Notes: generated by a model from the sequence alone, not told the origin. Positions 9,793 through 29,759 are shown, numbered from the stretch's first letter. The stretch is DNA of 64,000 nucleotides from Minisyncoccota bacterium (GCA_035541415.1 DATKNI010000030.1:1621-65620); one strand, 5' to 3'. Translations and numbers: made by a program.

Positions 9793-9839
9793 TTGAAATT
9801 CCTGCGCCGTTTCTTTTGGGGCTGGATTAAATTATAAAA

Positions 9840-9856
9840 AACCAATATTATTGGTT
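9840..9856 (+). promoter_or_regulatory. 17-bp perfect palindrome (aaccaatattattggtt) overlapping the gmd TTG/ATG start region
   Basis: Read directly; a perfect inverted repeat centred at 9848 between the GT11 gene and gmd. Confidence 0.3.
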
Positions 9857-9863
9857 GGTACCT

Positions 9864-10922
9864 ATGGCCAAAGAACCACGGAAAAAGGCAATCATTACGG
9901 GTATTACCGGGCAGGATGGGTCATATCTTGCCGACTTCCTTCTTTCAAAAGGCTACGAAGTGCACGGCATCGTCCGCCGCGCTTCGACCATGAATCGTGA
10001 GCGCATCCAGCATCTCCACCACGACCCGCACGCGTCGCGTTCGATAACGCTCCACTACGGTGATCTCGCTGACGCGAACACGATCCGCCGCCTCCTGTAC
10101 GAAGTGGAACCGGACGAAATTTATCATTTGGGCGCGCAATCGCATGTGCGCGTGTCGTTCGATGTCCCTGAATATACGGCGAACATCACCGGCCTCGGTA
10201 CGCTCCGCATTTTGGAAGCCATCAAAGATTACGAAAAAGATACCGGCAAGAAAGTCCGCTTCTACCAGGCATCGAGTTCCGAAATGTTCGGCGCCGCTCC
10301 GCCGCCGCAAAACGAAGAGACAAAGTTTTACCCGCGCAGCCCGTACGGCGCCGCGAAAGTTTTTGCCTATGATATGACCCGCAATTACCGCGAGGCGTAC
10401 GGCATCTATGCGGTCAACGGGATCCTTTTCAACCACGAGAGCCCGCGCCGCGGTGAAGCATTCGTGACCCGCAAGATCGCGATCGGCGTTGCAAAAATTG
10501 CCGCCGGCCTCGAAAAGAAACTCTACCTCGGCAATCTCGAAGCGCGCCGCGACTGGGGATATGCGCCGGAATATGTTGAGGCCATGTGGATTATGCTCCA
10601 ACAGCCGGAACCCGATGATTACGTGATTGGCACGGGCCAGTCATATAAGGTGCAGGATTACGTCAATCGTGCATTCGAAGTGGCGGGCCTCGGCGACCCA
10701 AAGCAGTACATCGGCATTGATGAACGCTATTACCGCCCGACTGAGGTCCGCTATCTTTTGGCAGACGCAACCAAAGCGAAAGAAAAATTGGGATGGCAGG
10801 CGGTAACCACATTCGATAATCTGGTGAAGATTATGGTGCGCGCCGAACTCCGCCGCCATGGCCAGCATGAACGCGCCGAAAAGATCATTGTGGAAAATCC
10901 GGTAACGTGGGTGAACGAATAA
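9864..10922 (+). CDS. gmd: GDP-mannose 4,6-dehydratase
   Basis: N-terminus [21 protein letters not shown] and SDR catalytic motifs. ATG at 9864 preferred over TTG at 9855. Confidence 0.9.
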
Positions 10923-10924
10923 TT

Positions 10925-11857
10925 ATGAAAATATTCCTTTCCGGCGGATCGGGCCATTTGGGAAGCGTGCTCGTGCCGCGTTTGCGGGCGGCAGGGCACG
11001 AAGTATCTGCCCCACGGAGCAAGGAATGCGACCTCATGGTTTTTCATGAATGTCTTTCTGCAACCAAAGGATCAGACATGATCATCCATGCCGCAGCCGT
11101 CGCCAAATCGCGCGTGGAACAGATGGCGCATCCATCGGAATCGTTCCGGCCGAACGTCTTGATGACGCTGCAGATCCTCGAAGCGGCGCGCCAAAACAAG
11201 GTAAAGAAGGTTTTGATCGTAAACTCGTTGCGGGCCTATGCCGATATGGAAGCTCCCTTTAAAGAGGAGGCCTTGCTCGAATCAAAGGTTCCGAGCATCA
11301 AGAACAAGACGTTTGGCTATTACGGCCTTTCGAAATGGGTTTCGATCCCTGCCGGGAGGGCATACGCAGCAGAGTTCGAAGACATGAAAATCCGCGAAGT
11401 CGTTTTTTCAAATCTTTACGGCCCGAATGATAAATTTGATTTCGATCCGCCCCCGGCCGTCCCTTCATTCATAAAAAAGATCGCCGCAGCGAAGAAGCAA
11501 GCGATGCCTGCGTTCGATGCGGGGAACAATCCGGGCGCGACGCTCGACCTTCTTTATGTCGACGACGCTGCGGAACTTATGATGCGGGTTGTTGAAAACT
11601 TCGGCGATGGATCATTTGACATCATCAATGGCGGCGGCGGACGCTCATACGAGCTTCGCGAGGTCGCCGATACCGTCGCTGAAGCAGTGGGCTTTAGTGG
11701 TAAAATTACTTGGAGCGGCGAAATAAAAACCCCGCCGATGTTTCTTGATACGGAGAAGGCACATTCGCAATTTGACTGGAAGCCCTCAACAACTTTATCG
11801 AAAGGGATCAACAATACCGTCGAGTGGTTCAATAAAAACTATGGCAAAACAAAATAA
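10925..11857 (+). CDS. NAD-dependent epimerase/reductase (GDP-6-deoxy-4-keto-sugar reductase, Fcl-like)
   Basis: Short-chain SDR fold (FLSGGSGHLGS), directly after gmd. ATG at 10925 follows the gmd stop. Confidence 0.55.
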   Translation: MKIFLSGGSGHLGSVLVPRLRAAGHEVSAPRSKECDLMVFHECLSATKGSDMIIHAAAVAKSRVEQMAHPSESFRPNVLMTLQILEAARQNKVKKVLIVNSLRAYADMEAPFKEEALLESKVPSIKNKTFGYYGLSKWVSIPAGRAYAAEFEDMKIREVVFSNLYGPNDKFDFDPPPAVPSFIKKIAAAKKQAMPAFDAGNNPGATLDLLYVDDAAELMMRVVENFGDGSFDIINGGGGRSYELREVADTVAEAVGFSGKITWSGEIKTPPMFLDTEKAHSQFDWKPSTTLSKGINNTVEWFNKNYGKTK

Positions 11858-13058
11858 AAACCCCGCCGGGCTCAAAGTGGGGGTTGGATCGCTTACGATC
11901 GGCCCGCTGGCAAAAAAATTGATCAACCAGACGCTCGATAAGAACCGATTGTCGTACGGCGATCTCACGATGGAATTTGAAAATAAGTTCGCCCAGCTCC
12001 ATGGCGCCCGCTTCGGCATTTTTACGGTGAGCGGGACTTCGGCGCTCCAGGTGGCGCTGAACGCGATGAAAAATATCCACGGATGGAAGGATGGCGACGA
12101 AGTGCTCGTTCCGGCAATCACATTCATAGCAACGTCGAATATCGTTATTTCAAATAACCTCAAGCCGGTTTTCGTCGATATCGATCCGCGCACCTATAAC
12201 ATCGATCCTTCGAAGATCGAGGCAAAAATAACCAAACGGACCCGCGCGATCATTCCGGTGCATCTTTTCGGCCAACCGGCAGAGATGGACACGATCATGG
12301 CGATCGCACGCAAGCGCAAGCTCAAAGTGATTGCGGACTCCTGCGAAACGATGGATGCCCATTACAAGGGCAAGCCGCTTGGGGCGTGGGGCGATATCGT
12401 TTGCTTTTCAACCTATGTTGCCCATATTCTCATCACGGGCGTTGGCGGTCTCATGATTACCAATGATCCGCGCTATGCGACGGCGATGCGGAGCCTCATG
12501 AATCATGGCCGCGACACCATCTATTACAATATCGACCAGGACGACAAACTGGGCAGCAAAAAAGCATTGTTTACGATGGTGAACCGCCGATTTTCGTTTA
12601 TTGATGTGGGCTACAGCTATCGCCTCACCGAACTCGAAGCGGCATTGGGGCTCGAGGGCCTTCAAAAGATGAAGGCGACCGTGCGCGGCCGTAAAAAGAA
12701 CGCGGCGTATTTGACGAAGGCGTTATCAAGTTTCGCCAATGACCTCCAGCTTCCTTTCACGCCAAAGGGATCTGACAACGTTTATTTTTGCCTCCCGATC
12801 GTCATCAGGAAAAATAGCAAAATAAAGAGGGAAGACCTCGTGACATTCCTCGAAGAGCGGGGCATCGAAACGCGCTACATGATGCCGCTCTTGAGCCAGC
12901 CGGTCTACCGGAAGCTTTTTCCGGGCCTCGAAAAGAAGTATCCTGTTGCGCAATGGATTGAGAAAAACGGATTTTACATCGGCTGCCATCAGGACCTTTC
13001 CATGAAAGAGCTGCGCTACGTCGCAAGCGCATTTGAAGAATTTTTTAATAAAAAATAA
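11841..13058 (+). CDS. DegT/DnrJ/EryC1/StrS-family PLP-dependent sugar aminotransferase
   Basis: About 405 aa from ATG 11841. Typical DegT fold motifs (GDEVLVPA.TF.AT, SFH..K). Confidence 0.8.
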   Translation: MAKQNKNPAGLKVGVGSLTIGPLAKKLINQTLDKNRLSYGDLTMEFENKFAQLHGARFGIFTVSGTSALQVALNAMKNIHGWKDGDEVLVPAITFIATSNIVISNNLKPVFVDIDPRTYNIDPSKIEAKITKRTRAIIPVHLFGQPAEMDTIMAIARKRKLKVIADSCETMDAHYKGKPLGAWGDIVCFSTYVAHILITGVGGLMITNDPRYATAMRSLMNHGRDTIYYNIDQDDKLGSKKALFTMVNRRFSFIDVGYSYRLTELEAALGLEGLQKMKATVRGRKKNAAYLTKALSSFANDLQLPFTPKGSDNVYFCLPIVIRKNSKIKREDLVTFLEERGIETRYMMPLLSQPVYRKLFPGLEKKYPVAQWIEKNGFYIGCHQDLSMKELRYVASAFEEFFNKK

Positions 13059-14140
13059 TGAACGGAGGAAAACCAACGCAGATTATTGTCGTCGGCCCCG
13101 ACCACCACGGCGATTGGCCGAAGGATATTTATCTCGGCATCAAGCAAGCAGGCATTGGCGCGGAGCTCATCTTCACGAATACCCTCGTGAAAGGGACCGA
13201 CAACAATACCGACATCAGCAAGCGGGCACGGCTCGAAAAGATCAAGCAGCTTTTCAGGAACTATGCGCGCCCGGTATTCAATTACGTGAAGAAGCGCCGC
13301 CGCTTGATGGCTGAGCGTTCGCTTTTTGACCAGGTGAATGCAGCACATCGGCCCGGAGAAAAGCTCCACGTGATGTTCATGTGGACGCCGCCGAGCATCG
13401 AGACGCTTAAAATTCTGAAAGAGAATAAAGATATCGTCCTGTCGCTTTGGCTCGGCGAAGCGCCGATCCGCGAGCCGCTGTGGCCGGCAACATTCCCGCA
13501 CTTCGACCACTTCATTTATGTCGACGAGGAGTGGTATCCGATCCTTGCGCCCGACGTCCAAAAGAAATCAGCCTACATCCCGCTTGCTTCCACGCCAGAG
13601 AAGTTTTTCCCGATAAAACCCGAAGAGAAGAACGATAAGTTCAAATGCGACATCGCCTTCGTGGGCTATTATCTCGACGAGCGCGCCGAAGTGCTTTCTG
13701 TAGTGAAGGATTATGACCTCCATATTTATGGATACCGTTGGGAAAACGGGTTTGAAAAGTTTCCGTGGCTCAAAGAAAAATGGAAAGGGCCTCTTTCCAA
13801 TGAAGATGCCAACCAGGCATTCAACGGCGCAAAGATCGAAATCGGCCGCGCCCTTTCGTTCGTCAAATTCGGGCATGTGGTTACCCAGCGCGTTTTCGAC
13901 ATCTCGCTTGCAGGGAATTTCCAGTTGAGCGGCTATGCTCCGAGCCTCGAAAAAATGTTCGGCGATTCCATCCCGATGTTCAATGATGCGAAAGAACTGA
14001 AAGAAAAAGTTGATTATTACTTGGCACATCCGGAAGAGCGCGAGCGGCTCGCGAAGAAGGCGCATGAAATTTGTCTTCGTGAACATACGTACGCGCATAG
14101 GGTCCAGGAGCTTATCAAAGTTTTGGGGATCACGGCGTAG
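13058..14140 (+). CDS. CgeB-family glycosyltransferase (DUF3880 + GT1-like C-terminal domain)
   Basis: 360 aa. C-terminal region resembles CgeB/spore-maturation-type GT (ERERLAKKAHE.CL.EHTY..R). Confidence 0.55.
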   Translation: MNGGKPTQIIVVGPDHHGDWPKDIYLGIKQAGIGAELIFTNTLVKGTDNNTDISKRARLEKIKQLFRNYARPVFNYVKKRRRLMAERSLFDQVNAAHRPGEKLHVMFMWTPPSIETLKILKENKDIVLSLWLGEAPIREPLWPATFPHFDHFIYVDEEWYPILAPDVQKKSAYIPLASTPEKFFPIKPEEKNDKFKCDIAFVGYYLDERAEVLSVVKDYDLHIYGYRWENGFEKFPWLKEKWKGPLSNEDANQAFNGAKIEIGRALSFVKFGHVVTQRVFDISLAGNFQLSGYAPSLEKMFGDSIPMFNDAKELKEKVDYYLAHPEERERLAKKAHEICLREHTYAHRVQELIKVLGITA

Positions 14141-14150
14141 AGCGATTGTA

Positions 14151-14179
14151 TTGCAAAAAGAATATTTTTGTTGCATAAT
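14151..14179 (+). promoter_or_regulatory. sigma70-like promoter (TTGCAA-17-CATAAT) upstream of the cupin gene
   Basis: Read directly in the 14141-14214 intergenic gap. A GAGGAGG SD at 14203-14209 lies 5 nt before the TTG start. Confidence 0.4.
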
Positions 14180-14214
14180 ATCCCTCGGCATTAACTTCGC
14201 ACGAGGAGGTTATT

Positions 14215-14652
14215 TTGGACAATCTGGAAACGCTCGTAACAACCGTTGGGCCTGCAAATACCGATTCTCGACGCATCATTTGGGAGCCGGTCAATGGCGA
14301 CATGGGCAAATTCTGCCGATTGAATTTTTTCGATTGGACAGGCCAGGAAGCGCCCGGCGGTAACCATTATCACGAAAGAAACGAAGAAGTGTTTTTCGTG
14401 ACCCAAGGAGAAATCTCCAAAATGGTCATCGAGAACATCGACACCAAAGAGCGGCATCGCTGGAAGCATCTCGGCGTTGGCACCGTAATTCATATGCCGG
14501 TGCGTCACGCCCATGCACTGGTGCTTGCTCCCGGAAGCAAAATGATCGCGCTGTGCTCCCAACCGTTCGACGAGAATGACAAGGACATGCCAGTCTACAT
14601 GCTGCTCGACAAAAAAACGGGCGAAGAGATCCCGCAGGCGGTAGCCGCCTAG
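14215..14652 (+). CDS. WxcM/FdtA-like cupin (NDP-4-keto-6-deoxy-sugar 3,4-isomerase family)
   Basis: 145 aa cupin. TTG start with a strong SD; no in-frame ATG nearby. Confidence 0.45.
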   Translation: MDNLETLVTTVGPANTDSRRIIWEPVNGDMGKFCRLNFFDWTGQEAPGGNHYHERNEEVFFVTQGEISKMVIENIDTKERHRWKHLGVGTVIHMPVRHAHALVLAPGSKMIALCSQPFDENDKDMPVYMLLDKKTGEEIPQAVAA

Positions 14653-14750
14653 GGACGTGTGCGCCATGCTTCCCAAAGCATGGCGCATTTTTTAACCCTT
14701 TTATCCTTTGACTTTCGGCGCAAACTGCGCCATTCTATACCTTGTATCCA

Positions 14751-15329
14751 ATGATTCACCCCTATCTCGAAGAATCAATCGCCCTCCAGAAAAAAGTATT
14801 GGAGGATAAAGCCATCGCTGCCACGTTCGATAAAATCGTGCATGCCACGCTCGCTAGCATCAAAAACGGCGGCAAGATTTTGGTTGCCGGCAACGGCGGC
14901 AGTGCTGCCGACGCACAGCACTTCGCGGCGGAATTCGTGGCAATGTACAAAATTGACCGCCGCGCCCATCCGGCGCTTGCGCTCACGACCGACACGTCGG
15001 TTTTAACCGCGGTGAGCAACGACCATCATTTTGACCGAGTTTTCGCGCGCCAGGTTGAAGCACTTGGGACAAAAGGCGACATCCTTTTCCTCCTCACGAC
15101 AAGCGGCAATTCAAAAAATCTTTTGAACGCCGTCCATGTGGCAAAACAGCGCGGCGTGACGACGGTTGCGCTCCTTGGCAAAGGTGGCGGACCGATGAAG
15201 GGCCTCGCTGACTACGAGATCATTGTTCCTTCAGACAACGTGCCGCGCATCCAAGAGGTGCAGAAGCTCATCTTGCACAGCGTTGCAGAAGAAGTGGAGA
15301 AGCGGCATTACAACGAATATCTTTCATAG
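14751..15329 (+). CDS. gmhA: D-sedoheptulose-7-phosphate isomerase
   Basis: SIS domain with the GNGGSAADAQHFAAE motif typical of GmhA. Confidence 0.8.
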   Translation: MIHPYLEESIALQKKVLEDKAIAATFDKIVHATLASIKNGGKILVAGNGGSAADAQHFAAEFVAMYKIDRRAHPALALTTDTSVLTAVSNDHHFDRVFARQVEALGTKGDILFLLTTSGNSKNLLNAVHVAKQRGVTTVALLGKGGGPMKGLADYEIIVPSDNVPRIQEVQKLILHSVAEEVEKRHYNEYLS

Positions 15330-15345
15330 TGATATCATTATCGAT

Positions 15346-15858
15346 ATGGAAGTCGTGAAAACCAAATTGGAAGGAGTTCTGCTCATCAAGCCGGATGTGT
15401 TTGAGGATTTTCGCGGCACGTTCACGGAAACCTATAACGAGGAAGCGTATAAAAAAATCGGGATCACGGACCACTTCACCCAGGACGACATGTCGGTTTC
15501 GGTGAAGCACGTCTTGCGCGGCATCCACATGGAACCGTCGATCGCAAAAATCATTTCGTGCGGCTATGGAAAATTATATTGCGTCGTCGTAAATTGCGAC
15601 GAGAAGTCGAAAGATTTTGGAAAGTGGGATGCGTTCACGCTGACCGACCGCAATCGGTGGCAGGTGTATGTTCCGCCGAAGCATGGCATCGGACATTTGG
15701 TATTGAGCGAAATCGGCATGTTCCATTACAAGCAATCGGGATATTACGATCCGGCCGGACAAAAGAGCTATCGCCACAACGATCCGAAGTTCAAAGTATG
15801 GTGGCCGATAAAGAATCCGATTCTTTCCCAGCGCGACGAAGAGGGTCGTTATGTCTAA
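15346..15858 (+). CDS. NDP-sugar 3,5-epimerase, RmlC-like cupin
   Basis: 170 aa dTDP-4-dehydrorhamnose-3,5-epimerase fold (RG.HMEPS, K.YCVVVN). In a GDP-sugar context it may act on GDP-heptose or GDP-deoxyhexose. Confidence 0.7.
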   Translation: MEVVKTKLEGVLLIKPDVFEDFRGTFTETYNEEAYKKIGITDHFTQDDMSVSVKHVLRGIHMEPSIAKIISCGYGKLYCVVVNCDEKSKDFGKWDAFTLTDRNRWQVYVPPKHGIGHLVLSEIGMFHYKQSGYYDPAGQKSYRHNDPKFKVWWPIKNPILSQRDEEGRYV

Positions 15859-16432
15859 GCTCCTGCGCAAAACCCGTTCATTCCTGGCATTCTGTTATCT
15901 TCATTCGCCGTTCTTTTCCGAAGAGCGGTATTTCCGTTTTCCGGTGGGCATTCTCAAACACGAAATGGAGGGGAAGGCTTCTTTTGAGATCATCCACATC
16001 GGAAGCCAAAAGAGGTTCCCGCGCGCGCTTTGGGAAAAAATATGCAAGCAACGGAGAGTCGGCAATATAACGGTTGTCGAGAATTGGGAAACGTCGCGCG
16101 GCCTTCCTAAAAATTTTTATGATTTTGCGTATGTCGATGACGGCCATTCGTATTCGGCCACGCGGAGCGATATTCTGCATGCTTCCGAATTGCTGCATGA
16201 GGGCGGCGTGCTTGCCGGCGACGACCTTGAGCTTTCGATGGATGAAGTTGATGCCCGGCTCACCGAACAGTGCCGGGAGGATAATCACTGCAAAGATCCG
16301 CGGAGCGGCATGGAATATCATCCGGGCGTCACGTTTGCCATCGGGGAAATTTTGGGAAATTCGTTTTCTCGCGACCGGGCATTCTGGGCGGCGCGTCGCA
16401 TGCAAAACGGCTGGGGCAAATACGGGCAATAA
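15851..16432 (+). CDS. class I SAM-dependent O-methyltransferase (Methyltransf_24 / TylF-MycF-CmcI family)
   Basis: 193 aa; the FAYVDDGHSY motif is characteristic of the sugar O-MTase family. Confidence 0.5.
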   Translation: MSKLLRKTRSFLAFCYLHSPFFSEERYFRFPVGILKHEMEGKASFEIIHIGSQKRFPRALWEKICKQRRVGNITVVENWETSRGLPKNFYDFAYVDDGHSYSATRSDILHASELLHEGGVLAGDDLELSMDEVDARLTEQCREDNHCKDPRSGMEYHPGVTFAIGEILGNSFSRDRAFWAARRMQNGWGKYGQ

Positions 16433-16476
16433 AAATCGCATGACATGCAGTCATGCGATTTTGCTGGTAGAAGCGC

Positions 16477-17472
16477 CTACGGAACGACGCAATCCCAGGT
16501 TCTGATGAGCGGATCGAGCTCTTTCCAAAAGTCATCTGGAATAGGGAACGATGCGAATGCGACATTCTGTTCGACTTCTTTGCGGCTGCGACATCCGGGA
16601 ATGCAAAGCGCAAATTGCGGATGGCGGACGCACCACTGGATCGCTGCCGCGCCGAGCGGGACATCGTGGTTTTCACAAACCTTGATGAGCGTTTGGACAT
16701 AGGTGCGAACTTCCGGGGCGAAATGCCGTTGTTGGTATTTGCGCCCGGCATTGAATCCTTCCGCAAGAATGCCGCGCTCTAGCGCGGTTGCTGCGATGAG
16801 CCCGACGCTGTTTCGTTCGGCCCATGGGATAATGAACCGATTTGCGGTTTGCGAGATCAAACTCCATGAGCCGACGACAATTGCGGCATCGCACATGCCG
16901 GATGCAATATAGTGGCTTGCTGTTTCCGGATTGTCCGCTCCGACGCCGAGATAGTCGGTCATGCCATAATTGCGGACATCCAACATGGCCGTGTAAGCCC
17001 CCTTCTTACCAAAGATGAAGGACGGCCTAACGCCCATGGGGTCGTGGAGGTTGAGGATGGATACCATGCTTATGCCAAGGCGTTCGAGGCTTTGGTCGAA
17101 GCTCCGCCGCGCTGCATCGTATGAAAAATCATACGAATCGTGCGGATAGAGGTGTCCGATTTTAGTTGCAACGAATACTTGGCCTTTGATGTCGGGGCGC
17201 TCGTTAAGCGCCATGCCGATGAAGCTTTCACTCGAACCCTTGCCGTACCACGGTGCGGTGTCAATAAAACGGATGCCTGCGTCGAGTGCCGCAATGACCG
17301 CATCGACACCAAGGGTTTCGTTGGCGAGCGTTCCGAATCCCGGACCGTCCGCATATTGCGCTTGTGCCAAATTGGAGTGGGGAAGGCCGAGCGGGCCAGT
17401 ACCCAGTCCGAGAATAGGCGTTACGATGTTTGTGCCGATCAATTGCTTTTGCTGCATGCGCCTGCCTCCCAT
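16477..17472 (-). CDS. aldo/keto reductase
   Basis: 331 aa TIM-barrel AKR (GLGTG.LG, catalytic tetrad context). Confidence 0.75.
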   Translation of the reverse strand: MGGRRMQQKQLIGTNIVTPILGLGTGPLGLPHSNLAQAQYADGPGFGTLANETLGVDAVIAALDAGIRFIDTAPWYGKGSSESFIGMALNERPDIKGQVFVATKIGHLYPHDSYDFSYDAARRSFDQSLERLGISMVSILNLHDPMGVRPSFIFGKKGAYTAMLDVRNYGMTDYLGVGADNPETASHYIASGMCDAAIVVGSWSLISQTANRFIIPWAERNSVGLIAATALERGILAEGFNAGRKYQQRHFAPEVRTYVQTLIKVCENHDVPLGAAAIQWCVRHPQFALCIPGCRSRKEVEQNVAFASFPIPDDFWKELDPLIRTWDCVVP

Positions 17473-17569
17473 GCCGAACCGTGAATTTGAATAAATTGTA
17501 AACTAGTGCCGCGCTTCTTATATCATTTCTGTTGCCTAAACTCAAGCAGCGTCGTATCATAGGAGCATT

Positions 17570-18514
17570 ATGAAACCACAAAAGATTCTCGTGACGGGCG
17601 GCGCAGGCTATATCGGTTCGATCCTCATCCCCGAACTTTTGCGCGCAGGGCACGAAGTGACGGTCATCGATAATTTTTTATATAGCCAGAGTTCGTTGCT
17701 CGACGTTACGCATTTCAAGACGCTCACCGTCGTCCGCGGCGATGCGCGCAACGAAGCGCTCATAAAAAAGCATATCGAAGGAAAGGATTTCATTATCCCG
17801 CTCGCGTGCATTGTCGGAGCTCCCGCATGCGACGCCGATCCGGTGGCCGCCCGCACGATCAACCTCGAAGCGGTGCAGATGATTTTGCGTCTGCGCAAGC
17901 CGGAACAGAAAATTATTTTCCCGAATACAAACAGCGGGTATGGCCGCATGCAGGAAGGAGTGGCATATTGCGACGAAACGAGCGCGCTTGATCCGGTTTC
18001 GCTCTACGGCAAGCTCAAGGTGCAAGCCGAGCTCGAGATTTTGGCGGCTAAGAACGCGATCACGCTCCGTCTCGCAACGGTTTTCGGAGGCAGTCCGCGC
18101 ATGCGCATGGATCTTCTCGTGAATGATTTCGTGTATCGCGCCCTTATGGACCGCACGGCGGTGCTTTTTGAGCCGCACTTCAAGCGCAACTACATCCACG
18201 TCCGCGACGTGGCGCGCGCGTTCATGCACGCGATGGAGCATTTTGAAAAAATGAAAAACGAGCCGTACAACGTCGGCCTTTCGGATGCAAATTTGAGCAA
18301 GAGCGAACTTTGCGCGGAAATCAAAAAGCAGCTGCCAAAATTTGTCTATGTCGAATCGGCGATCGGGGAGGATCCCGACAAGCGCAACTATATCGTGAGC
18401 AACGCAAAGATTGAAAAGACCGGCTTCAAGCCGCAGTACTCCCTGCAGGACGGCATCACCGAACTCATCAAGGTGTATCAAATCGCGCAGAGGAACGACT
18501 TCACGAATCTTTAA
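17570..18514 (+). CDS. NAD-dependent epimerase/dehydratase (SDR)
   Basis: VTGGAGYIGS Rossmann motif. AGGAG SD 5 nt upstream. Confidence 0.8.
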   Translation: MKPQKILVTGGAGYIGSILIPELLRAGHEVTVIDNFLYSQSSLLDVTHFKTLTVVRGDARNEALIKKHIEGKDFIIPLACIVGAPACDADPVAARTINLEAVQMILRLRKPEQKIIFPNTNSGYGRMQEGVAYCDETSALDPVSLYGKLKVQAELEILAAKNAITLRLATVFGGSPRMRMDLLVNDFVYRALMDRTAVLFEPHFKRNYIHVRDVARAFMHAMEHFEKMKNEPYNVGLSDANLSKSELCAEIKKQLPKFVYVESAIGEDPDKRNYIVSNAKIEKTGFKPQYSLQDGITELIKVYQIAQRNDFTNL

Positions 18515-18547
18515 TCTTTTCGTCGGCGTTTCTTGGCGCTGTCATCA

Positions 18548-18576
18548 TTGACGGATTTATGTCAATTTGGTATTAT
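18548..18576 (+). promoter_or_regulatory. sigma70-like promoter TTGACG-17-TATTAT
   Basis: Read directly in the 18515-18619 intergenic region upstream of the HD-domain gene. Confidence 0.45.
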
Positions 18577-18619
18577 TTCCGCGGTATTTTTGACGCGAAC
18601 AAAATGAAAGGAGTCCACT

Positions 18620-19348
18620 TTGAACAGTTTCTTGGAACAACTTGCCTCCGATTTGAGAAAAGCGTATATCACTCCAAACGTAAGCCGTGGGCACGATTTT
18701 TACCATATCGAACGGATGGTGGCGCGTGGTCCAGAGATCCGTGAATACCTCGTGTTCGAGATGGACGAATATGTCGCGGCGGTGTGGTTGCACAACGTTG
18801 ACCGGTGCGTTCCCCTAAAACAATTGACGGCGGAGCTCGGCGGACTGAGAAAGTGCATCCTTTCGCTTTTGGAAGGGAGCGATTTTTCTCCTGAGGCCAA
18901 AGAGAGGATCATCGACGCAGTGCTTCAGCACAGTAAAAAAGACGATGAACCAGGCGATAGCCCTCTGCTGCTCGCTCTTCGGGTGGCAGATAAGTTGGAC
19001 CGTTTTATTCCAACCCTTCTCGTGGAAGCTCCTGCGTCATGGGGGCACCTGCCGATTTTCGTGGCCCAACATCCCTTCGGTTATGATCCCACCGAGGCCG
19101 GTGAACGGGGTACCGCCGGACATCAGAGCATCTATCAGACGTATTATCGGGTGCTTGAGTGGATCCCGATGATGCCTGAATGGGCTCGGGGCCTGATCCG
19201 TCGGGACCATCTTCGGCTGTTTATCACCTTCTTGCGGCTCTTGGGAGCGCAAGCGGCAGATCAGTTCCACGTGACCAACCAGGTTGAAGATGATATTCGT
19301 CACGCTCTTGGTCCCTGCTACGAATGGGCCAATGTATACATCGCGTGA
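18620..19348 (+). CDS. hypothetical protein, possible HD-domain phosphohydrolase
   Basis: 242 aa. H...HD-like motif (GHDFYHIERM) and ALRVADKLDRF. TTG start with an AAAGGAG SD. Confidence 0.35.
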   Translation: MNSFLEQLASDLRKAYITPNVSRGHDFYHIERMVARGPEIREYLVFEMDEYVAAVWLHNVDRCVPLKQLTAELGGLRKCILSLLEGSDFSPEAKERIIDAVLQHSKKDDEPGDSPLLLALRVADKLDRFIPTLLVEAPASWGHLPIFVAQHPFGYDPTEAGERGTAGHQSIYQTYYRVLEWIPMMPEWARGLIRRDHLRLFITFLRLLGAQAADQFHVTNQVEDDIRHALGPCYEWANVYIA

Positions 19349-19433
19349 GCATTTTCAGTTTCCTGCGGGCACCTTGCATAAGGGTGCCCGTTTTTTATTC
19401 GCAAAATTTGGAAAAAGGTGTACGATAAGCCAT

Positions 19434-20384
19434 ATGTATAAAAGAATTCTTGTGACGGGTGGCAGCGCGGTTGCGGGCGATGGGTTGAAGAGCGTCGTGG
19501 CGAAAGGGGAATATGACGGACGCGAATTTATTTTCCCGACGTCAAAAGAGTGCAACATGCTCGATTTTGAAGCGACCCAAAAATTTGTCGCGGATTGGAA
19601 GCCGGATGCCATTGTGCATTTCGCGGCCATCTCCGGCGGTATCCAGCTCACTATCGACCATCCGGCAAGCGTCATGCGCGACAACATCATCATGAACTTC
19701 AACGTCGCTGAAGCGGCGCGGGTGAACGGAGTTAATAAAGTTTTAATGACGCTCTCAGCGGCAATCTATCCTTTGGACACGCCTCTCCCCATGAAAGAAG
19801 AAGATATGCATAAAGGTTATCCGCATGAGACGAATTACAGCTACGCATTTGCAAAACGTCTCATCGACCCGATGGCCAAAGCATACAAGAAAGAATATGG
19901 CATGAGCATCGTTGGCATCATCCCTGGCGCGATCATAGGCCCCAAAAGCAACTTCGATCCCAAAAGCTCTACGGCAATCCCGGCGCTCATCCGGCGATTC
20001 TTTGAAAACCGCGGGAACAACGATCCTCTCGTTGTTTGGGGCGATGGCTCACCCGTGCGCCAGTTCACCTCGGACGAAGACATCGCCCGCATTGCCATGT
20101 GGTGCATTGATAATTATGACGATCCGCAGGTTTTGAATGTGAGCACCATGGAAGATCTCTCTATCAAAGAGGCAGCTTATGTCATCGCCAAAGCGCTCGG
20201 CGTGGATTCCGGGCGCATAACATTCGACACGACAAAGCCCGCAGGAACCCACAGTCAGGGCGTGGACAATAGCAAATTCGTTTCGCTTTCACATTTCAAA
20301 TACACGCCGGCGCGTGAAACGATAACGCGGACGGCGAAATATTTTGCAGAACATTATCCCGATCCGAAAAAACTGCGGTTGTAA
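19434..20384 (+). CDS. fcl: GDP-L-fucose synthase-like reductase/epimerase (Fcl/WcaG/GER family)
   Basis: ILVTGGSA...AIVHFAAISGGIQ...NNIIMNFNV..AA...GVNK colinear with GDP-4-keto-6-deoxymannose 3,5-epimerase-4-reductases. ATG at 19434. Confidence 0.65.
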   Translation: MYKRILVTGGSAVAGDGLKSVVAKGEYDGREFIFPTSKECNMLDFEATQKFVADWKPDAIVHFAAISGGIQLTIDHPASVMRDNIIMNFNVAEAARVNGVNKVLMTLSAAIYPLDTPLPMKEEDMHKGYPHETNYSYAFAKRLIDPMAKAYKKEYGMSIVGIIPGAIIGPKSNFDPKSSTAIPALIRRFFENRGNNDPLVVWGDGSPVRQFTSDEDIARIAMWCIDNYDDPQVLNVSTMEDLSIKEAAYVIAKALGVDSGRITFDTTKPAGTHSQGVDNSKFVSLSHFKYTPARETITRTAKYFAEHYPDPKKLRL

Positions 20385-20401: not shown

Positions 20402-21382
20402 ATGAACTATCGCACCATCGGGAAAACCGGGATCACCGTTTCCGAGATCGGTTTCGGGGCGTGGGGGATCGGCGGTGAAACGCAGGACGGTGCAAATTCA
20501 TACGGCAAGACCGATGACGCAGAATCAAAGCGCGCGCTGGAGCGCGCCTTTGAACTCGGCATCACGTTCTATGACACCTCAAACATTTATGGCTACGGCC
20601 ACAGCGAGGAATTGCTCGGCGAAGTTTTTAGCAAGCGGCGCGATAAAGTCGTGATAGCGGGAAAAGCGGGATTTACGAAGCACGACGGCCCGCACGATCT
20701 CTCGCCGGCATATTTACGAAAGTGTCTTGAAGAAAGCTTGCGCCGTTTGAAAACCGATTATATCGATGTCTACCAACTTCACAGTCCGCCGATCTCGCTC
20801 ATCGAAGAACATCCGGAATGCGTTGAAGAATTGCAGAAGATGAAATCCGAAGGCAAGATCCGCGCGATCGGCATCTCGGTAAAAGGTCCGGGCGACGCTC
20901 TTCCTGCCATCGAAAAATTTGGTTTCGAATCGGTACAGGTGAATTTCAATCTGATTGACCAGCGCGCGCTCGAGACTGGCGCGTTCGAGGCGGCACGGAA
21001 GCACGGCGCAGGGATCATCGCCCGCACGCCGCTCGCGTTCGGATTTCTCACGGGCGCAATAACCGATCTTCATTTCCCGCCGCATGACCATCGTTCGGCA
21101 TGGCCGGAACGGCAATTGAAGCTGTGGGCGGATGCCCCAAATGCGTTTGCATTCCTTCGCAAAGGGAAAGACTGGACGCCCACGCAGCTTGCCCTCAAGT
21201 TCTGTATCAGTTTTAATGCCGTATCGGCGGTAATTCCCGGGATACTCCATCCAAGCGAGGCCGAGCAAAATGCAGCGGCGAGCGAGGGGGCGCTGCTTAC
21301 CAAGCAGGAGATTGATGCCGCAATTGAGGTCTATAAGACACGCGAGTTTTTCGACAGATCTGCCGTGCGCAAGGTCGCATGA
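20402..21382 (+). CDS. aldo/keto reductase
   Basis: 326 aa AKR (GFGAWGIGG, YDTSNIYGYGHSEELLG). Confidence 0.8.
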   Translation: MNYRTIGKTGITVSEIGFGAWGIGGETQDGANSYGKTDDAESKRALERAFELGITFYDTSNIYGYGHSEELLGEVFSKRRDKVVIAGKAGFTKHDGPHDLSPAYLRKCLEESLRRLKTDYIDVYQLHSPPISLIEEHPECVEELQKMKSEGKIRAIGISVKGPGDALPAIEKFGFESVQVNFNLIDQRALETGAFEAARKHGAGIIARTPLAFGFLTGAITDLHFPPHDHRSAWPERQLKLWADAPNAFAFLRKGKDWTPTQLALKFCISFNAVSAVIPGILHPSEAEQNAAASEGALLTKQEIDAAIEVYKTREFFDRSAVRKVA

Positions 21383-21430
21383 CGCGATTCTTGAAACGCC
21401 CAATTCGGCGTGTTATAGTCGTGTATACCT

Positions 21431-22042
21431 ATGACCAAAGAAGAACTTATCCAATTTGAACAGGAGATAGCTGACGCCTATTGTGCCGGCCAAATCAGGG
21501 GCCCGGTGCATCTTTCTGATGGAAACGAAGACCAGTTGATCGAATTATTTAAAGGCATCAAAAAATCGGACTGGGTTTTTTCGACGTGGCGCAGCCATTA
21601 TCACGCGCTCCTTCACGGCGTTCCCAAAGAAGAGGTGAGAGCCGAGATCATGAAGGCCAACAGCATCACGCTCAGTTTCCCCGAGCACCGCTTTTTCACG
21701 TCCGCAATCGTAAACGGAATCACTCCGATCGCCGTCGGCGCCGCGATGGGCATAAAGAGAAAGGGAGAAGACCGGCATGTTTGGTGTTTTGTCGGTGACA
21801 TGGCGGCGGAAGCGGGAGTTTTCTATGAAAACGTAAAATATGCCGATAACCACGGCCTCCCGATCACGTTCGTTGTCGAAGACAACGGGCAGAGCGTCGG
21901 TACGCCGACGGATGTCGTCTGGGGATACGACAGATCGAAAGAGAAGCCGGATTATTTAAAATGGGACAGGAAGAATTTGATTTATTATCGTTACGAGAAA
22001 AAATGGCCTCACGTCGGGGCTGGCGTATGGGTGACATTCTAA
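21431..22042 (+). CDS. thiamine-diphosphate enzyme, E1-alpha-like (PP-domain) subunit
   Basis: 203 aa, ThDP-binding GDMA...N motif (CFVGDMAAEAGVFYENVKYADNHGLPITFVVEDNG). Confidence 0.6.
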   Translation: MTKEELIQFEQEIADAYCAGQIRGPVHLSDGNEDQLIELFKGIKKSDWVFSTWRSHYHALLHGVPKEEVRAEIMKANSITLSFPEHRFFTSAIVNGITPIAVGAAMGIKRKGEDRHVWCFVGDMAAEAGVFYENVKYADNHGLPITFVVEDNGQSVGTPTDVVWGYDRSKEKPDYLKWDRKNLIYYRYEKKWPHVGAGVWVTF

Positions 22043-22045
22043 ACT

Positions 22046-22588
22046 ATGAAATATCGTGAAGAATTAAGAAGGGCGGTCCTTTATCTCGCAGAACACCCGA
22101 AGACCATTTTTATCGGGCAGAGCGTTTCATATCCCGGCAATGCGATCTATACCGGATCCCTCAAGGATGTCCCAATGGAGAAAAAAATCGAAATGCCCGT
22201 ATTCGAAGAAACGCAAATGGGCATGTCTATCGGCCTCGCCATGGAAGGATTCATTCCGGTCAGCGTTTTCCCTCGGTATAATTTTTTGATTGTTGCGGCA
22301 AACCAGCTCATCAATCATTTGGATAAGATTCCTCATATCTCACATGGCAAACTTCGCCCGAAGGTGATCATAAAGACAATGGTGGGCGGCGTGCGGCCGC
22401 TTGATCCGGGAGTTCAGCACAAAAGCAACTTCACCGAGGCGTTCCGCCATCTCGTTTCGGAAAATATTGTCATCGAAGACCTCACCGAGCCTGAGATGAT
22501 ATTCCCTGCGTATCAGCGGGCGCTTGAAAGGGAAGATGGCAAGTCGACGATTCTGGTTGAGTACGGCGACTTTAATAAGGAAAAATAA
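22046..22588 (+). CDS. thiamine-diphosphate enzyme, E1-beta/transketolase pyrimidine-binding-domain subunit
   Basis: 180 aa Pyr-domain protein (FIGQSV...ETQMGMSIGLAMEG), translationally adjacent to the alpha-like subunit. Confidence 0.6.
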   Translation: MKYREELRRAVLYLAEHPKTIFIGQSVSYPGNAIYTGSLKDVPMEKKIEMPVFEETQMGMSIGLAMEGFIPVSVFPRYNFLIVAANQLINHLDKIPHISHGKLRPKVIIKTMVGGVRPLDPGVQHKSNFTEAFRHLVSENIVIEDLTEPEMIFPAYQRALEREDGKSTILVEYGDFNKEK

Positions 22589-22676: not shown

Positions 22677-23684
22677 ATGATTATCACGCGGACCCCATTT
22701 CGAATGTCATTTTTTGGCGGCGGGACGGACTATCCCGTCTGGTATGAAAAGCACGGAGGTGCGGTACTTTCGACTACAATCGATAGATTTTGTTATGTGA
22801 CGTGCCGTTACTATCCGCCGTTTTTTGACGCCAAGGTGCGCGTCGTTTGGTCAAAGATCGAACTCGTTCAAAACGCGAACGAACTTGAACATCCGATTGC
22901 ACGCCACACGTTAAATTTTTTAAATCTTCCCAAAAATATTGAAATTCATCACGCCGCCGATCTTCCGGCTCGCTCCGGCCTTGGTGCAAGTTCGTCGTTC
23001 ACCGTCGGTCTCTTGAACGCTCTCTATGCGTTGCTTGGGAAAAAGACAACTAAAGCGGATCTGGCTTCCGAGGCCATCCATATCGAGCGCGTGCTTGCCG
23101 GGGAAACCGTCGGCTCGCAGGACCAAGTGGCCGCCGCATTCGGCGGCTTCAATAAGATAGTTTTCCGCACCGACGGGAATATCGAAGTTATTCCTTTGAG
23201 CATTTCAGGCAATGTGCTTCGCGGCCTCAAAGATCGCTTGCTGCTTTTCTTCACCGGCCTTTCGCGCAGCGCTTCCGAAGTCGCGAGCGTACAGGTTAAG
23301 AATACTCCACAGAAAGAAAAAGAGCTGATAGCCATGCACGACATGGTGGACGAAGGGGTGAAATTTCTTGAAAACGGCGCACTCGACGACTTCGGCAAAC
23401 TGCTTCATGAAGCATGGCAGATGAAGCGGAGCTTGACGCCGCTCATCGCGAACGGCCACATCGATGCGATCTATGAAGCTGCGCGGAGCGCAGGCGCGAT
23501 CGGAGGCAAGCTTCTTGGTGCGGGCGGGGGAGGATTTATGCTCGTGTACGCGGATCCTTCCCGGCACAAGGCAATCAAGGAAAAACTTTCAAAATTCCTC
23601 TGCGTGCCATTCGACTTTGAACAAGAGGGGACGCAGGTTATCCACCAGAGCGGAGGCGTACTCGATGGTGTAAACTTTACATAA
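22677..23684 (+). CDS. hddA: GHMP sugar kinase, D-glycero-D-manno-heptose 7-phosphate kinase-like
   Basis: N-terminal RTPFRMSFFGGGTDYP and PARSGLGASSSF GHMP ATP-binding motif, colinear with HddA. Confidence 0.7.
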   Translation: MIITRTPFRMSFFGGGTDYPVWYEKHGGAVLSTTIDRFCYVTCRYYPPFFDAKVRVVWSKIELVQNANELEHPIARHTLNFLNLPKNIEIHHAADLPARSGLGASSSFTVGLLNALYALLGKKTTKADLASEAIHIERVLAGETVGSQDQVAAAFGGFNKIVFRTDGNIEVIPLSISGNVLRGLKDRLLLFFTGLSRSASEVASVQVKNTPQKEKELIAMHDMVDEGVKFLENGALDDFGKLLHEAWQMKRSLTPLIANGHIDAIYEAARSAGAIGGKLLGAGGGGFMLVYADPSRHKAIKEKLSKFLCVPFDFEQEGTQVIHQSGGVLDGVNFT

Positions 23685-26823: not shown

Positions 26824-27393
26824 ATGGACGACACCATAGCATTGGCATTTCTTGACCAGGACGGCGTGATCACAAAAGAAGTCCACCATCTCCATCGCAT
26901 GGAAGATTTGGAAATTCTTCCGAATGTCGCGAAGGCGATCCGCGCAATCCGGGCGAAAGGATTTAAGATTGCCGTCATCACGAACCAAGCCGCTGTTGCA
27001 AAAGGGATTGTCGAGCTCGATCAGGTTCTCGCCCTCCAAAAAGAAATCGTGCGCCGGCTTGCCGACGAGGGCGCCGTCATCGATGGCTATTTTTATTGCC
27101 CCCATCATCCGCAAGGGACGGTCGAGCCGTACAACCGTGAATGCGACTGCCGCAAGCCGGAGCCTGGCATGTTCAAAAGGGCGGCCGTAGAGTTCCAAGA
27201 AAAATTCGGCAAAAAAGTCGATTTCTCGGCGAGTGTTACGGTCGGTGATAAGACAGGCGATATCCTTGCCGGGCAAGCGGTCGGAACGCGGACCGTTTTG
27301 GTAGAGACCGGCTACGGCGGCAAAGACGGCGTGCACGAGGCAACCCCTGATTTCGTCGCCAAAGACCTCTTTGATGCGGTTCAGTACTTCTAA
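26824..27393 (+). CDS. gmhB: D-glycero-D-manno-heptose 1,7-bisphosphate phosphatase (HAD-IIIA)
   Basis: LDQDGVIT HAD motif I and YFYCPHHPQG...CDCRKPEPGM zinc-binding insert diagnostic for GmhB. Confidence 0.85.
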   Translation: MDDTIALAFLDQDGVITKEVHHLHRMEDLEILPNVAKAIRAIRAKGFKIAVITNQAAVAKGIVELDQVLALQKEIVRRLADEGAVIDGYFYCPHHPQGTVEPYNRECDCRKPEPGMFKRAAVEFQEKFGKKVDFSASVTVGDKTGDILAGQAVGTRTVLVETGYGGKDGVHEATPDFVAKDLFDAVQYF

Positions 27394-27460: not shown

Positions 27461-28180
27461 ATGAAAGGCGTTATTCTCGCAGGTGGAAACGGAACCCGAT
27501 TGCGTCCAGTGACCTTCGAAATTCCCAAACCCCTCATCACGATTAAGAAAAAGCCGCTCATCAATTATAATCTCGATCTTCTGACCGCGGCGCATGTTGA
27601 CGACGTCAAGGTGATTATTCGTCCGCAGGACGATCCGGATTACAAGCGCTGGCTCCGCGAATATGCGCCCCACTATCCTTCGATGAACATCGAGCTTATC
27701 CTCGAATCGGAGCCGATGGGGACGCTCGGCTATGTTTTCCATCATCTCCAATCGTGGATCGGCAAGGATGATGTGTTTGTGGTGAACGGCGACGTGATCC
27801 ACAAAGGCGTCGACGTGAAAGCGATGCTCAAGCACCACGGCACGATTGGCATGCCCGCGACGATCGCGCTCATCAAAGTGGATCGTCCCGACGATTATGG
27901 CACGGCAGTTCTTGACGGCCACACCATTACTGAATTTGCGGAAAAAAAGAAAGGCCTTCCCGCCGGCCTTGTAAACGCTGGCCTCTACATGATCACGAAC
28001 AAGGCGCTGAAGCACATTGCGGAAGCCGGCGTCACCGGTCCGAAATATTTAATGTTTGAAAAAGAGATGTTCCCGGTGCTCGCAAACAGCAAGAAACTCG
28101 GCGGCTTTGTTGCCGACGGCGGCATGTTCTACGATTGCGGCACGTTTGAACGCTGGGAGAAGGCGATCAACGAAGTTTAA
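27461..28180 (+). CDS. hddC: sugar-1-phosphate nucleotidyltransferase, heptose-1-phosphate guanylyltransferase-like
   Basis: N-terminal GVILAGGNGTRLRP..FEIPKPL NTP-transferase motif; directly after gmhB. Confidence 0.65.
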   Translation: MKGVILAGGNGTRLRPVTFEIPKPLITIKKKPLINYNLDLLTAAHVDDVKVIIRPQDDPDYKRWLREYAPHYPSMNIELILESEPMGTLGYVFHHLQSWIGKDDVFVVNGDVIHKGVDVKAMLKHHGTIGMPATIALIKVDRPDDYGTAVLDGHTITEFAEKKKGLPAGLVNAGLYMITNKALKHIAEAGVTGPKYLMFEKEMFPVLANSKKLGGFVADGGMFYDCGTFERWEKAINEV

Positions 28181-29685: not shown

Positions 29686-29759
29686 GGTTATTAGTGTACC
29701 GCAACCGCGGGACTTTCGCATTTTAGAATTTTTTAATCTCCGACGTGCTAGGGTTTCAT

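Follow-up and report, generated by a model that had tools for sequence, protein, structure and literature searches.

The locus considered here raises the question of what a thiamine diphosphate (ThDP) enzyme reduced to two short subunits does among genes for nucleotide sugars. It lies at positions 21431-22588 of a 64,000-nucleotide stretch of DNA from a Minisyncoccota bacterium (GCA_035541415.1, DATKNI010000030.1:1621-65620), hereafter the window, and consists of two adjacent open reading frames (ORFs) that resemble the α and β subunits of the E1 component of 2-oxo-acid dehydrogenases. The original prediction was that the pair, like AviB1/AviB2, transfers a two-carbon unit to a keto sugar nucleotide to make a branched-chain sugar, or else that it is a mini-transketolase. 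The analysis leads us to interpret the pair, with a probability of roughly 0.55, as a C2 carboligase that depends on pyruvate and whose acceptor is a GDP-4-keto-(deoxy)heptose or hexose destined for a surface glycan.

The two ORFs (203 and 180 amino acids) were found exactly as predicted, in a common frame and separated by a gap of 3 nucleotides. The α ORF matched the Pfam profile E1_dh (PF00676) with an E-value of 2e-20, the match covering only positions 6-170 of the 300 of the profile, and the domain scan gave in addition a weak, partial match to TPP_enzyme_C, without TPP_enzyme_N or TPP_enzyme_M domains. The β ORF matched positions 16-167 of the 174 of Transket_pyr (1.7e-5; 24.9 bits, slightly below the Pfam cut-off of 27) and the NCBIfam model of pyruvate dehydrogenase (PDH) E1-β (1.6e-12). 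Compared with the NCBIfam cut-offs, the scores were low: 100.9 versus 393.85 bits for α (TIGR03182), and 47 versus 321 for the second model. In sequence searches of the PDB, the top match of α was human PDH E1-α (1.7e-10, query residues 15-161), and the top matches of β were archaeal or Thermus E1-β subunits (2e-8 and 8e-7, query residues ~13-136). An NCBI entry identical to α, from a metagenome-assembled genome (MAG) of Candidatus Paceibacterota, is named 'thiamine pyrophosphate-dependent enzyme', and the NCBI name of β is 'hypothetical protein'. Neither Transketolase_C nor lipoyl domains were detected in α or β in the Pfam/NCBIfam scan, and the 48 window ORFs scanned, among them the cluster neighbours and 10 large ORFs outside the cluster, contained no E2, E3 or lipoyl partner. 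As anticipated in the original prediction, α is an E1-α-like diphosphate-binding (PP) domain and β an E1-β-like pyrimidine-binding (Pyr) domain. Since the profile and fold coverage is truncated, and Transketolase_C and the C-terminal helices of E1-α are missing, it can be said that the pair is about half an E1, namely the PP core and the Pyr domain minus the parts that hold E2.

Two minor features of the DNA are recorded here. A minus-strand ORF (21545-21853) overlaps the α gene, the plus-strand product of which is strongly conserved. A promoter-like TTGAAA-17-TATAGT lies at 21391-21419, in the 48-nucleotide gap that precedes the ATG of α, although such sites did not occur above shuffle expectation.

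Concerning the catalytic residues, α contains the ThDP-Mg motif GDM-X27-N at residues 122-152 (G122-D123-M124-A125 ... E150-D151-N152). Among 29 α homologues, G122, M124, E150 and N152 were invariant and D123 nearly so. Other invariant residues were H27 (in the motif HLSxGNE), R54, H56 and H58, together with P193, H194, G196 and F203 of a family-specific C-terminal motif, YRY-x5-P193-H194-x-G196...F203. In β, the invariant residues were E54, R77, a cluster of N/Q/H/D/K at 86-94, and Q124-H125. Of these, E54 aligned with the cofactor-activating Glu and H125 with the active-site His of E1-β (1ik6, 1um9), and R77 is specific to the family. An alignment at the level of motifs suggests that the mini α retains the strand and 'YRY' located ahead of the catalytic His loop in E1-α, TYR(F/Y)xxHS, that it has lost an internal segment of ~45 residues relative to full-length E1-α, and that it terminates ~10 residues past H194, without the C-terminal helices.

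The AlphaFold2 (AF2) models of both subunits agreed with the domain assignments. The best 50 PDB fold matches of the α model (pLDDT 90.6) were all E1-α, with TM-scores of ~0.8 relative to the query (TMq) and ~0.46 relative to the target (TMt), and neither transketolase (TK) nor DXS appeared among those 50. The best 15 matches of the β model (pLDDT 89.5) were all E1-β (TMq 0.81-0.83, TMt ~0.46); in this search DXS and split TK were found only at ~1e-6, versus 1e-12 to 1e-9 for the E1 folds. Sequence and fold place the pair nearest to the E1 of PDH and of branched-chain 2-oxo-acid dehydrogenase (BCKDH), not to transketolase or DXS.

The pair belongs to a conserved family of its own, large and unstudied. 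A word-indexed search (E ≤ 1e-3) yielded 2,456 α and 2,861 β homologues, those listed being nearly all of ~200 amino acids (α) or ~180 amino acids (β), and HMMER, run exhaustively over 1.84 billion cluster representatives, yielded 118 clusters (50% identity) at E ≤ 1e-30. In one scan the carriers were 118 species-representative GTDB genomes. A scan of IMG/VR gave at least 571 viral contigs with a relative of the family, some of which may be misclassified cellular DNA; that phages carry the family is established by the presence of the gene in two cultured cyanophages, S-SM2 and P-TIM68. The uncultured phage LR756501, of 735 kb, was also among the carriers. The 80 loci kept came from Patescibacteria/candidate phyla radiation (CPR), DPANN archaea (Woese-, Nano- and Pacearchaeota), ~13 Pelagibacterales, Chloroflexota, freshwater Actinomycetota, Methylopumilus, Bacteroidota, Chlamydiota and others, a patchy spread typical of glycan-island genes. 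The expectation that such a pair would be unusual in a surface-glycan locus did not hold, as it is not rare there and forms part of a large family. Literature searches found no described minimal E1 pair of ~200 + 180 amino acids, and nothing relevant on ThDP enzymes in heptose clusters or on the phage 'transketolase central region' protein.

The gene for β almost always followed that for α, often overlapping it, in the 76 non-redundant loci drawn from GTDB genomes and metagenomes. Natural α-β fusions of ~400 amino acids were found in Woesearchaeota (L072, L028), in the metagenomic proteins P0142, P0195 and P0251, and in the two cyanophages, where they are annotated 'transketolase central region-containing protein' (ADO97531 in S-SM2, AIR93527 in P-TIM68). 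The near-universal gene order and the natural fusions show that α and β work together. The cyanophage fusion comes directly after a Zn-alcohol-dehydrogenase gene and near genes for a PfkB kinase, a cytidylyltransferase-like protein, short-chain dehydrogenases/reductases (SDRs) and glycosyltransferases. Another order recurs in viral loci, e.g., L114, L120, L129 and L133, where α and β are 2-4 genes apart, mostly with SDRs between them ('SDR RmlC A. SDR SDR. B'). Of the α homologues P0145 and P0139, one has an intein after ~residue 148, beside the EDN Mg/ThDP motif, and the other a LAGLIDADG-containing N-terminal extension.

The gene neighbours were surveyed in those 76 non-redundant cellular loci, of which 34 had full flanks, and in 76 viral loci. 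The longest non-overlapping ORFs were taken, the neighbours within 8 kb were clustered, and one representative of each cluster was scanned against Pfam or NCBIfam. SDR epimerases/dehydratases were present in 54 of the 76 cellular loci (30 of the 34 with full flanks) and in 71 of the 76 viral loci. The corresponding figures, in the same order, were 28/76, 13/34 and 35/76 for the DegT family; 22/76, 12/34 and 23/76 for B12-binding radical S-adenosylmethionine (SAM) enzymes; 21/76, 13/34 and 53/76 for RmlC-like proteins; and 20/76, 13/34 and 3/76 for GmhA-like SIS isomerases. GHMP kinases were found in 30/76, 19/34 and 5/76 loci, with 5, 2 and 1 further cases, respectively, of fusion to a nucleotidyltransferase, and adjoined the pair directly in 13 cellular loci. 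Nucleotidyltransferases occurred in 16/76 cellular loci (9/34 with full flanks), PfkB kinases in 24/76 viral loci, and aldo/keto reductases (AKRs) in 6/76 cellular loci (3/34), with none detected in the viral set.

The DegT-family neighbours deserve attention, because most of them have His in the position of the Schiff-base Lys: 31 of 36 in cellular loci and 43 of 45 in viral ones (74 of 81 together), including every member of the cellular set at ≤1.5 kb from the pair. Due to this replacement, they are predicted to be 3-dehydratases, not aminotransferases. The copy beside the pair in L035 matched ColD (2gms) with 1.4e-50, and its His aligned with His188 of ColD. The window SDR at 17570-18514, which matches PDB 6vo6, had homologues (≥150 bits) in 21 of 75 cellular loci and 47 of 76 viral ones; their median distance from α was ~1.5 kb, and they often came directly after β. 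One or both of these partners, His-type 3-dehydratase and 6vo6-like SDR, occurred in 30 of 75 cellular loci, many of them truncated, and in 56 of 76 viral loci. Judging from these homologies, the specific partners of the pair, 4,6-dehydratase-like SDRs among them, make, or act on, the C4 ketone of a GDP-sugar.

The window itself conforms to this picture (Table 1). The setting in a nucleotide-sugar cluster and the position between an AKR and a sugar kinase were as described in the original prediction, with sugar-nucleotide genes throughout the cluster. The route to a GDP-heptose is complete in the window, with GmhA-like, GHMP kinase, GmhB-like and nucleotidyltransferase genes. The 6vo6-like SDR is probably a GDP-heptose C4-dehydrogenase that supplies the 4-keto acceptor, 6VO6 being presumably the structure of Cj1427 of Campylobacter jejuni, an enzyme with that activity. 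The block 15223-20384 (RmlC-like, 6vo6-like SDR and Fcl-like proteins) mirrors the heptose-modification trio Cj1430/Cj1427/Cj1428 of that organism. The best PDB match of the DegT-family protein, 3bcx, is CDP-6-deoxy-L-threo-D-glycero-4-hexulose-3-dehydrase, itself called E1. The window protein has His at the position of His220 of that enzyme, in place of the Schiff-base Lys, and lacks its Fe-S cysteines; the products of its class are 3-deoxy-4-keto sugar nucleotides.

Table 1. Position of the pair and of the related cluster genes in the window, and of the two cyanophage fusions in their own sequences.
Feature	Position	Strand	Remarks
GDP-mannose 4,6-dehydratase (GMD), bona fide	9855..10922	+	TIGR01472, 490 bits vs cut-off 415
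His-type pyridoxamine phosphate (PMP)-dependent sugar 3-dehydratase, ColD/E1-like, DegT family	11844..13058	+	PDB 3bcx, 1.7e-55
GmhA-like sedoheptulose-7-phosphate isomerase	14742..15329	+	TIGR00441, 199 bits vs cut-off 209
RmlC-like C3/C5 epimerase of 4-keto sugar nucleotides	15223..15858	+	TIGR01221, 143 bits
SDR, 6vo6-like	17570..18514	+	PDB 6vo6, 9.6e-107, 359.9 bits, full length; 58%-like match
Conserved 242-aa protein, function unassigned by profiles	18620..19348	+	66% identical copy, same position in L008
GDP-L-fucose-synthase (Fcl)-like SDR, epimerase/C4-reductase type	19284..20384	+	NF047922, 193 bits, residues 53-357
AKR, directly upstream of the pair	20402..21382	+	PF00248, 1e-59
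Mini E1-α-like subunit	21431..22042	+	203 aa, ATG start; PP (diphosphate-binding) domain
Mini E1-β-like subunit	22046..22588	+	180 aa, ATG start; Pyr (pyrimidine-binding) domain only
GHMP sugar kinase, HddA/fucokinase-like, directly downstream of the pair	22677..23684	+	168 bits vs HddA cut-off 600
GmhB-like HAD heptose-1,7-bisphosphate phosphatase	26824..27393	+	NF006506, 149 bits vs cut-off 178
Sugar-1-phosphate nucleotidyltransferase, HddC/RmlA-like	27461..28180	+	profile match
S-SM2 α-β fusion (L087, Synechococcus phage)	149421-150629		T4-like cyanophage
P-TIM68 α-β fusion (L088, Prochlorococcus phage)	167767-168912		T4-like cyanophage

The closest relative locus, L008 (83% identity), has the order RmlC, 6vo6-like SDR, 242-aa protein, Fcl-like, AKR, α, β, GHMP kinase, GT2, GT2 and, further along, GmhB, NTP transferase and flippase, as in the window. 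The locus L009 shares with the window the AKR, the His-type dehydratase, α, β, the kinase and the NTP transferase, so that the AKR is kept with the pair in both L008 (77% identity) and L009 (57%). The 242-aa protein gave no Pfam, NCBIfam or PDB sequence match. Right after its ORF there is a strong terminator-like hairpin (19365-19391; 11-bp stem and T-run), which implies that the TTG start listed for the Fcl-like ORF at 19284 is too far upstream and that the true start probably lies downstream of the hairpin. Fcl-like reductases number three in the window and AKRs two, and the cluster also has genes for methyltransferases and glycosyltransferases, together with a flippase, a Wzy-like polymerase and an initiating transferase. 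A gene of the GT11 fucosyltransferase family (8890-9792) precedes the block 9855-13058, formed by GMD, an Fcl-like SDR and the His-type 3-dehydratase; this block looks like a branch for colitose or another 3,6-dideoxyhexose within a glycan cluster of Paceibacterota. Where the glycan cluster ends, next to the flippase, an LCAT domain (lecithin:cholesterol acyltransferase-like) is present in a 755-aa protein encoded at 29745-32012.

It seems reasonable to interpret that an E1-derived enzyme unable to dock E2, placed amid enzymes of C4-keto GDP-sugars and with an AKR adjacent to it, serves for C2 branching. The pair would be a minimal heteromeric ThDP carboligase, presumably α2β2 as in E1, made only of PP and Pyr domains. 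The cofactor would be held between α, through GDM-X27-N and Mg2+, and β, with Glu54 activating the aminopyrimidine. A 2-oxo acid, most likely pyruvate, would be decarboxylated to give hydroxyethyl-ThDP. As the E2-docking domain is absent, this acyl-anion equivalent would not reduce a lipoyl group and would instead attack the C4 carbonyl of the GDP-4-keto sugar, yielding a 4-C-acetyl tertiary alcohol. The adjacent AKR, a candidate ketoreductase comparable to Pau7 or YerF, would then reduce the acetyl group, so that the sugar would carry a 4-C-(1-hydroxyethyl) branch by the time of its glycosyl transfer. Donor and acceptor are inferred here from the gene neighbours, and the branch position and the role of the AKR are inferred as well. 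The neighbouring B12-binding radical SAM enzymes, and the fusion of β to one of them observed in an archaeal MAG (L020:4807-6843), would fit a later C-methylation of the branch.

The logic of the neighbours would be that of the yersiniose pathway. Enzymes of the YerE type add acyl anions derived from pyruvate or longer 2-oxo acids to the C4 ketone of CDP-4-keto-3,6-dideoxy-glucose; YerE/ErwE receive their acceptor from a 4,6-dehydratase and a PMP-dependent 3-dehydratase, and ketoreduction takes place after branching (PMC9306805). The mini pair likewise has a 4,6-dehydratase and a PMP-dependent 3-dehydratase nearby in the window, and most of its loci with a DegT-family gene carry a His-type 3-dehydratase like that of the YerE pathway. 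On the other hand, YerE is a single chain of ~560 amino acids with the order Pyr-middle-PP and bound FAD, and belongs to an unrelated sequence family. The nucleotide is CDP in the YerE pathway and probably GDP for the mini pair, with a sugar that is often a heptose. Concerning this sugar, GDP-4-keto-, 6-deoxy-4-keto- and 3-deoxy-4-keto-heptoses and their enzymes have been characterized in C. jejuni (PMC10680097). Counterparts of that toolbox (C4-dehydrogenase, 4,6-dehydratase, C3-dehydratase, C3/C5 epimerases and C4-reductases) occur in the window and in many loci, so the likely substrates of the pair are GDP-4-keto- and GDP-3-deoxy-4-keto-heptoses. The C. jejuni toolbox has no ThDP step, the word 'thiamine' being absent from that text (PMC10680097), and the mini pair would add to it a step not described so far.

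Another comparison is with the E1-α/β-like pairs named aKADH2, including AviB1/AviB2, Pau11/Pau12, EvdU5/EvdS3, the aldgamycin and kosinostatin enzymes, and KbDH. They are also two-subunit, E1-like enzymes in deoxysugar clusters without E2 or E3, and have been proposed as the C2-branching enzymes of many antibiotic sugars, with pyruvate as the donor (PMC12247030, PMC4425429, PMC10338323). The proposed acceptor is a C3 or C4 keto sugar, and reduction of the branch often follows, as in paulomycin, where the acetyl branch is reduced by Pau7, an AKR (PMC4753412). For KbDH-α/β, C2 branching was shown in vitro on ketone analogues (PMC12247030). However, the aKADH2 pairs are full length (Pau11, 325 amino acids; Pau12, 345 amino acids; PMC4425429) and come from actinomycete antibiotic clusters, whereas the mini pair, of 203 + 180 amino acids, comes from surface-glycan clusters in CPR, DPANN, SAR11 and phages. 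The mini pair has no Transketolase_C, unlike the full-length pairs of L001 and L008, unverified proxies of the AviB type, which keep the E1-β C-terminal domain. The hidden Markov model (HMM) of the mini α scored >200 bits within the family and ≤108 bits on any full-length E1: 99-108 bits on PDH-type E1 that have an E2/lipoyl partner (comparators taken from plasmids) versus 56-75 bits on the unverified proxies of L001 and L008. As the higher scores are those of PDH-type E1, the mini family is probably a separate offshoot of E1 and not a truncated AviB-type protein, with the reservation that the proxies are unverified. The membership in the AviB1/AviB2 type that the original prediction had assumed is not supported.

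As to other ThDP enzymes, the closest in sequence and fold, the E1 of PDH, BCKDH and acetoin dehydrogenase, share with the pair the ThDP motif, the β Glu, the β His and probably the α His loop. They differ in that the mini subunits are about half as long (judged by TMt), without E2-binding domain or phosphorylation-loop region, and have no E2/E3 partner in the window scan and no central-metabolism context. The split transketolases, whether archaeal TK halves or the enzyme of miharamycin/amipurimycin, are also two-gene PP + Pyr ThDP enzymes, and the latter has been proposed to add a hydroxyacetyl branch to a keto sugar (PMC12247030). They are nonetheless composed of a Transketolase_N half and a Transketolase_C-bearing half (~270 + 305 amino acids), and in SAR11 they are additional to the mini pair. 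Sulfopyruvate and phosphonopyruvate decarboxylases have the order Pyr (TPP_enzyme_N) then PP (TPP_enzyme_C) and a linkage to genes for PEP mutase or coenzyme M, while the mini pair is PP then Pyr and of E1 type. A 2025 review of sugar-branching ThDP enzymes recognizes only the decarboxylase (DC), full-length aKADH2 and TK types (PMC12247030).

Several observations weigh against a C2 carboligase of 4-keto nucleotide sugars, in addition to the HMM scores just mentioned, by which the pair is no closer to the sugar-cluster pairs than to PDH-type E1. The statistics of neighbours depend on a crude longest-ORF caller and on a single Pfam-scanned representative per cluster. The AKR, conserved among close relatives, is not a partner of the whole family, and its role as a universal partner was rejected in view of its presence in only 6 of 76 loci. 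The two-carbon branching that had been predicted nevertheless remains the function that best fits the conserved neighbours and the YerE and aKADH2 paradigms. Three loci with full flanks had no recognizable sugar genes, and SAR11 loci have a GMD-like SDR yet no 3-dehydratase. SAR11 loci also hold other ThDP enzymes beside the mini pair: in L043, L078 and L082 (~8990-15400) the pair, a YerE-like enzyme of acetolactate synthase (ALS) type with 559 amino acids, and the N and C halves of a split transketolase lie in a row. In two close relatives of the window locus, L001 (1001-3783) and L008 (614-5552), a full-length E1-α/β-like pair coexists with the mini pair. The mini pair may therefore do something that these co-resident enzymes do not. 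Finally, the pair is adjoined by, or fused to, kinases of three folds (GHMP, directly beside it in 13 loci; APH family; PfkB, in 24 of 76 viral loci), which could mean that its activity comes ahead of nucleotide activation. Two details of these loci may be added: the full-length pair of L008 sits with a TylCIII-like sugar C-methyltransferase and SDRs, making two ThDP modules in one glycan cluster, and a 292-aa neighbour protein of the SAR11 loci gave no Pfam or PDB match.

Action before nucleotide activation would mean a carboligase of sugar phosphates or free sugars, either DXS-like or using hydroxypyruvate in a TK-like manner, that joins a C2 unit to an aldose phosphate or a sugar aldehyde and so makes a chain-extended precursor of octose or nonose type for later activation by kinase and nucleotidyltransferase. 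The kinases just cited (GHMP in 35 of 76 loci when fusions are included) and the SIS isomerases of 20 of 76 loci speak for it, as does the fact that ThDP carboligases usually take aldehydes, which are more reactive, as acceptors. The APH-family kinase (aminoglycoside/choline-kinase-like), which is fused to the N-terminus of α in P0204 (L089:1124-2782), points in the same direction, although it is a single case on a contig of 3.2 kb. We regard this possibility as unlikely, because the closest and most consistent neighbours (6vo6-like SDR, His-type 3-dehydratase and RmlC-like) act on nucleotide-bound 4-keto sugars, and because many loci (e.g., L001, L003, L013, L054) combine the pair with dehydratases and have no kinase or isomerase. 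Chemical reasoning adds that a 1-deoxy-ketose derived from pyruvate would not be convertible to an aldose by an isomerase of GmhA type. A related proposal, the mini-transketolase of the original prediction, would feed sedoheptulose-7-phosphate to the GmhA/HddA pathway, with whose GmhA-like, kinase, phosphatase and nucleotidyltransferase genes the pair does co-occur; moreover, many carriers are DPANN archaea, which often lack the pentose-phosphate pathway. It is nevertheless very improbable. Both subunits are E1 by sequence and fold (α matching E1_dh and not Transketolase_N), SAR11 loci contain distinct split transketolase genes beside the pair, and SIS genes are infrequent partners (13 of the 34 cellular loci with full flanks, 3 of the 76 viral ones). 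The pair is, furthermore, carried by cyanophages, the hosts of which make abundant sedoheptulose-7-phosphate.

If there were no carboligation, the pair could be a plain 2-oxo-acid decarboxylase, the aldehyde being later attached to the glycan or reduced. ComDE and Ppd are minimal PP + Pyr enzymes of similar size, and reductases (AKR, Zn-alcohol dehydrogenase, adh_short) are often near the pair, but the pair begins with its PP domain, which is of E1 type, a TPP_enzyme_N/C architecture is absent, and the link to enzymes that generate 4-keto sugars would be left unexplained, all of which makes this option rather improbable. A connection with phosphonate or sulfonate pathways was rejected, as no phosphoenolpyruvate (PEP) mutase or sulfolactate genes were present in the 20 neighbour clusters scanned. 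The chance that the pair is a degenerate or ordinary E1 of pyruvate or acetoin dehydrogenase, using E2/E3 encoded elsewhere in the genome, seems close to negligible in spite of PDH-type E1 subunits being its nearest full-length relatives by HMM score. The E1-β C-terminal domain that docks E2 and the E1-α C-terminal helices are absent, the NCBIfam scores are far under the cut-offs (101 versus 394 and 47 versus 321), lengths of ~200/180 amino acids are kept across thousands of homologues, the context is that of nucleotide sugars in most loci, those of phages included, and the window ORFs scanned contain no E2/E3.

Returning to the C2 carboligase, its chemistry is probably familiar; what would be new is the minimal architecture, the probable independent origin, the heptose-type substrates and the spread in uncultivated lineages and phages. 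More tentatively, with odds somewhat short of even, the family may be a class of minimal ThDP carboligases derived from PDH-type E1 independently of the AviB type, and a major route to C4-branched heptoses and 3-deoxy-heptoses in CPR, DPANN, SAR11 and phages. Within that proposal, and with a similar degree of doubt, the branches could be acetyl or hydroxyethyl groups, possibly further methylated, on sugars not yet described that would adorn cell surfaces, and hundreds of phages, T4-like cyanophages included, could carry the genes in order to remodel glycans. If the C2 carboligase assignment is right, the pair would be the fourth protein solution to ThDP-dependent sugar branching, joining the YerE-type enzymes, the full-length E1-like pairs and the split transketolases. 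With ~380 residues in total, it would be among the smallest known ThDP carboligases and of interest for making tertiary alcohols by biocatalysis. A direct test is feasible, since the enzymes for the presumed substrates are all encoded in the window and close homologues (ColD and, if 6VO6 is its structure, Cj1427) have already been characterized. If the interpretation is correct, branched heptoses would be predicted in CPR, DPANN and SAR11, the glycans of which have never been analyzed, and in glycan pathways encoded by phages.

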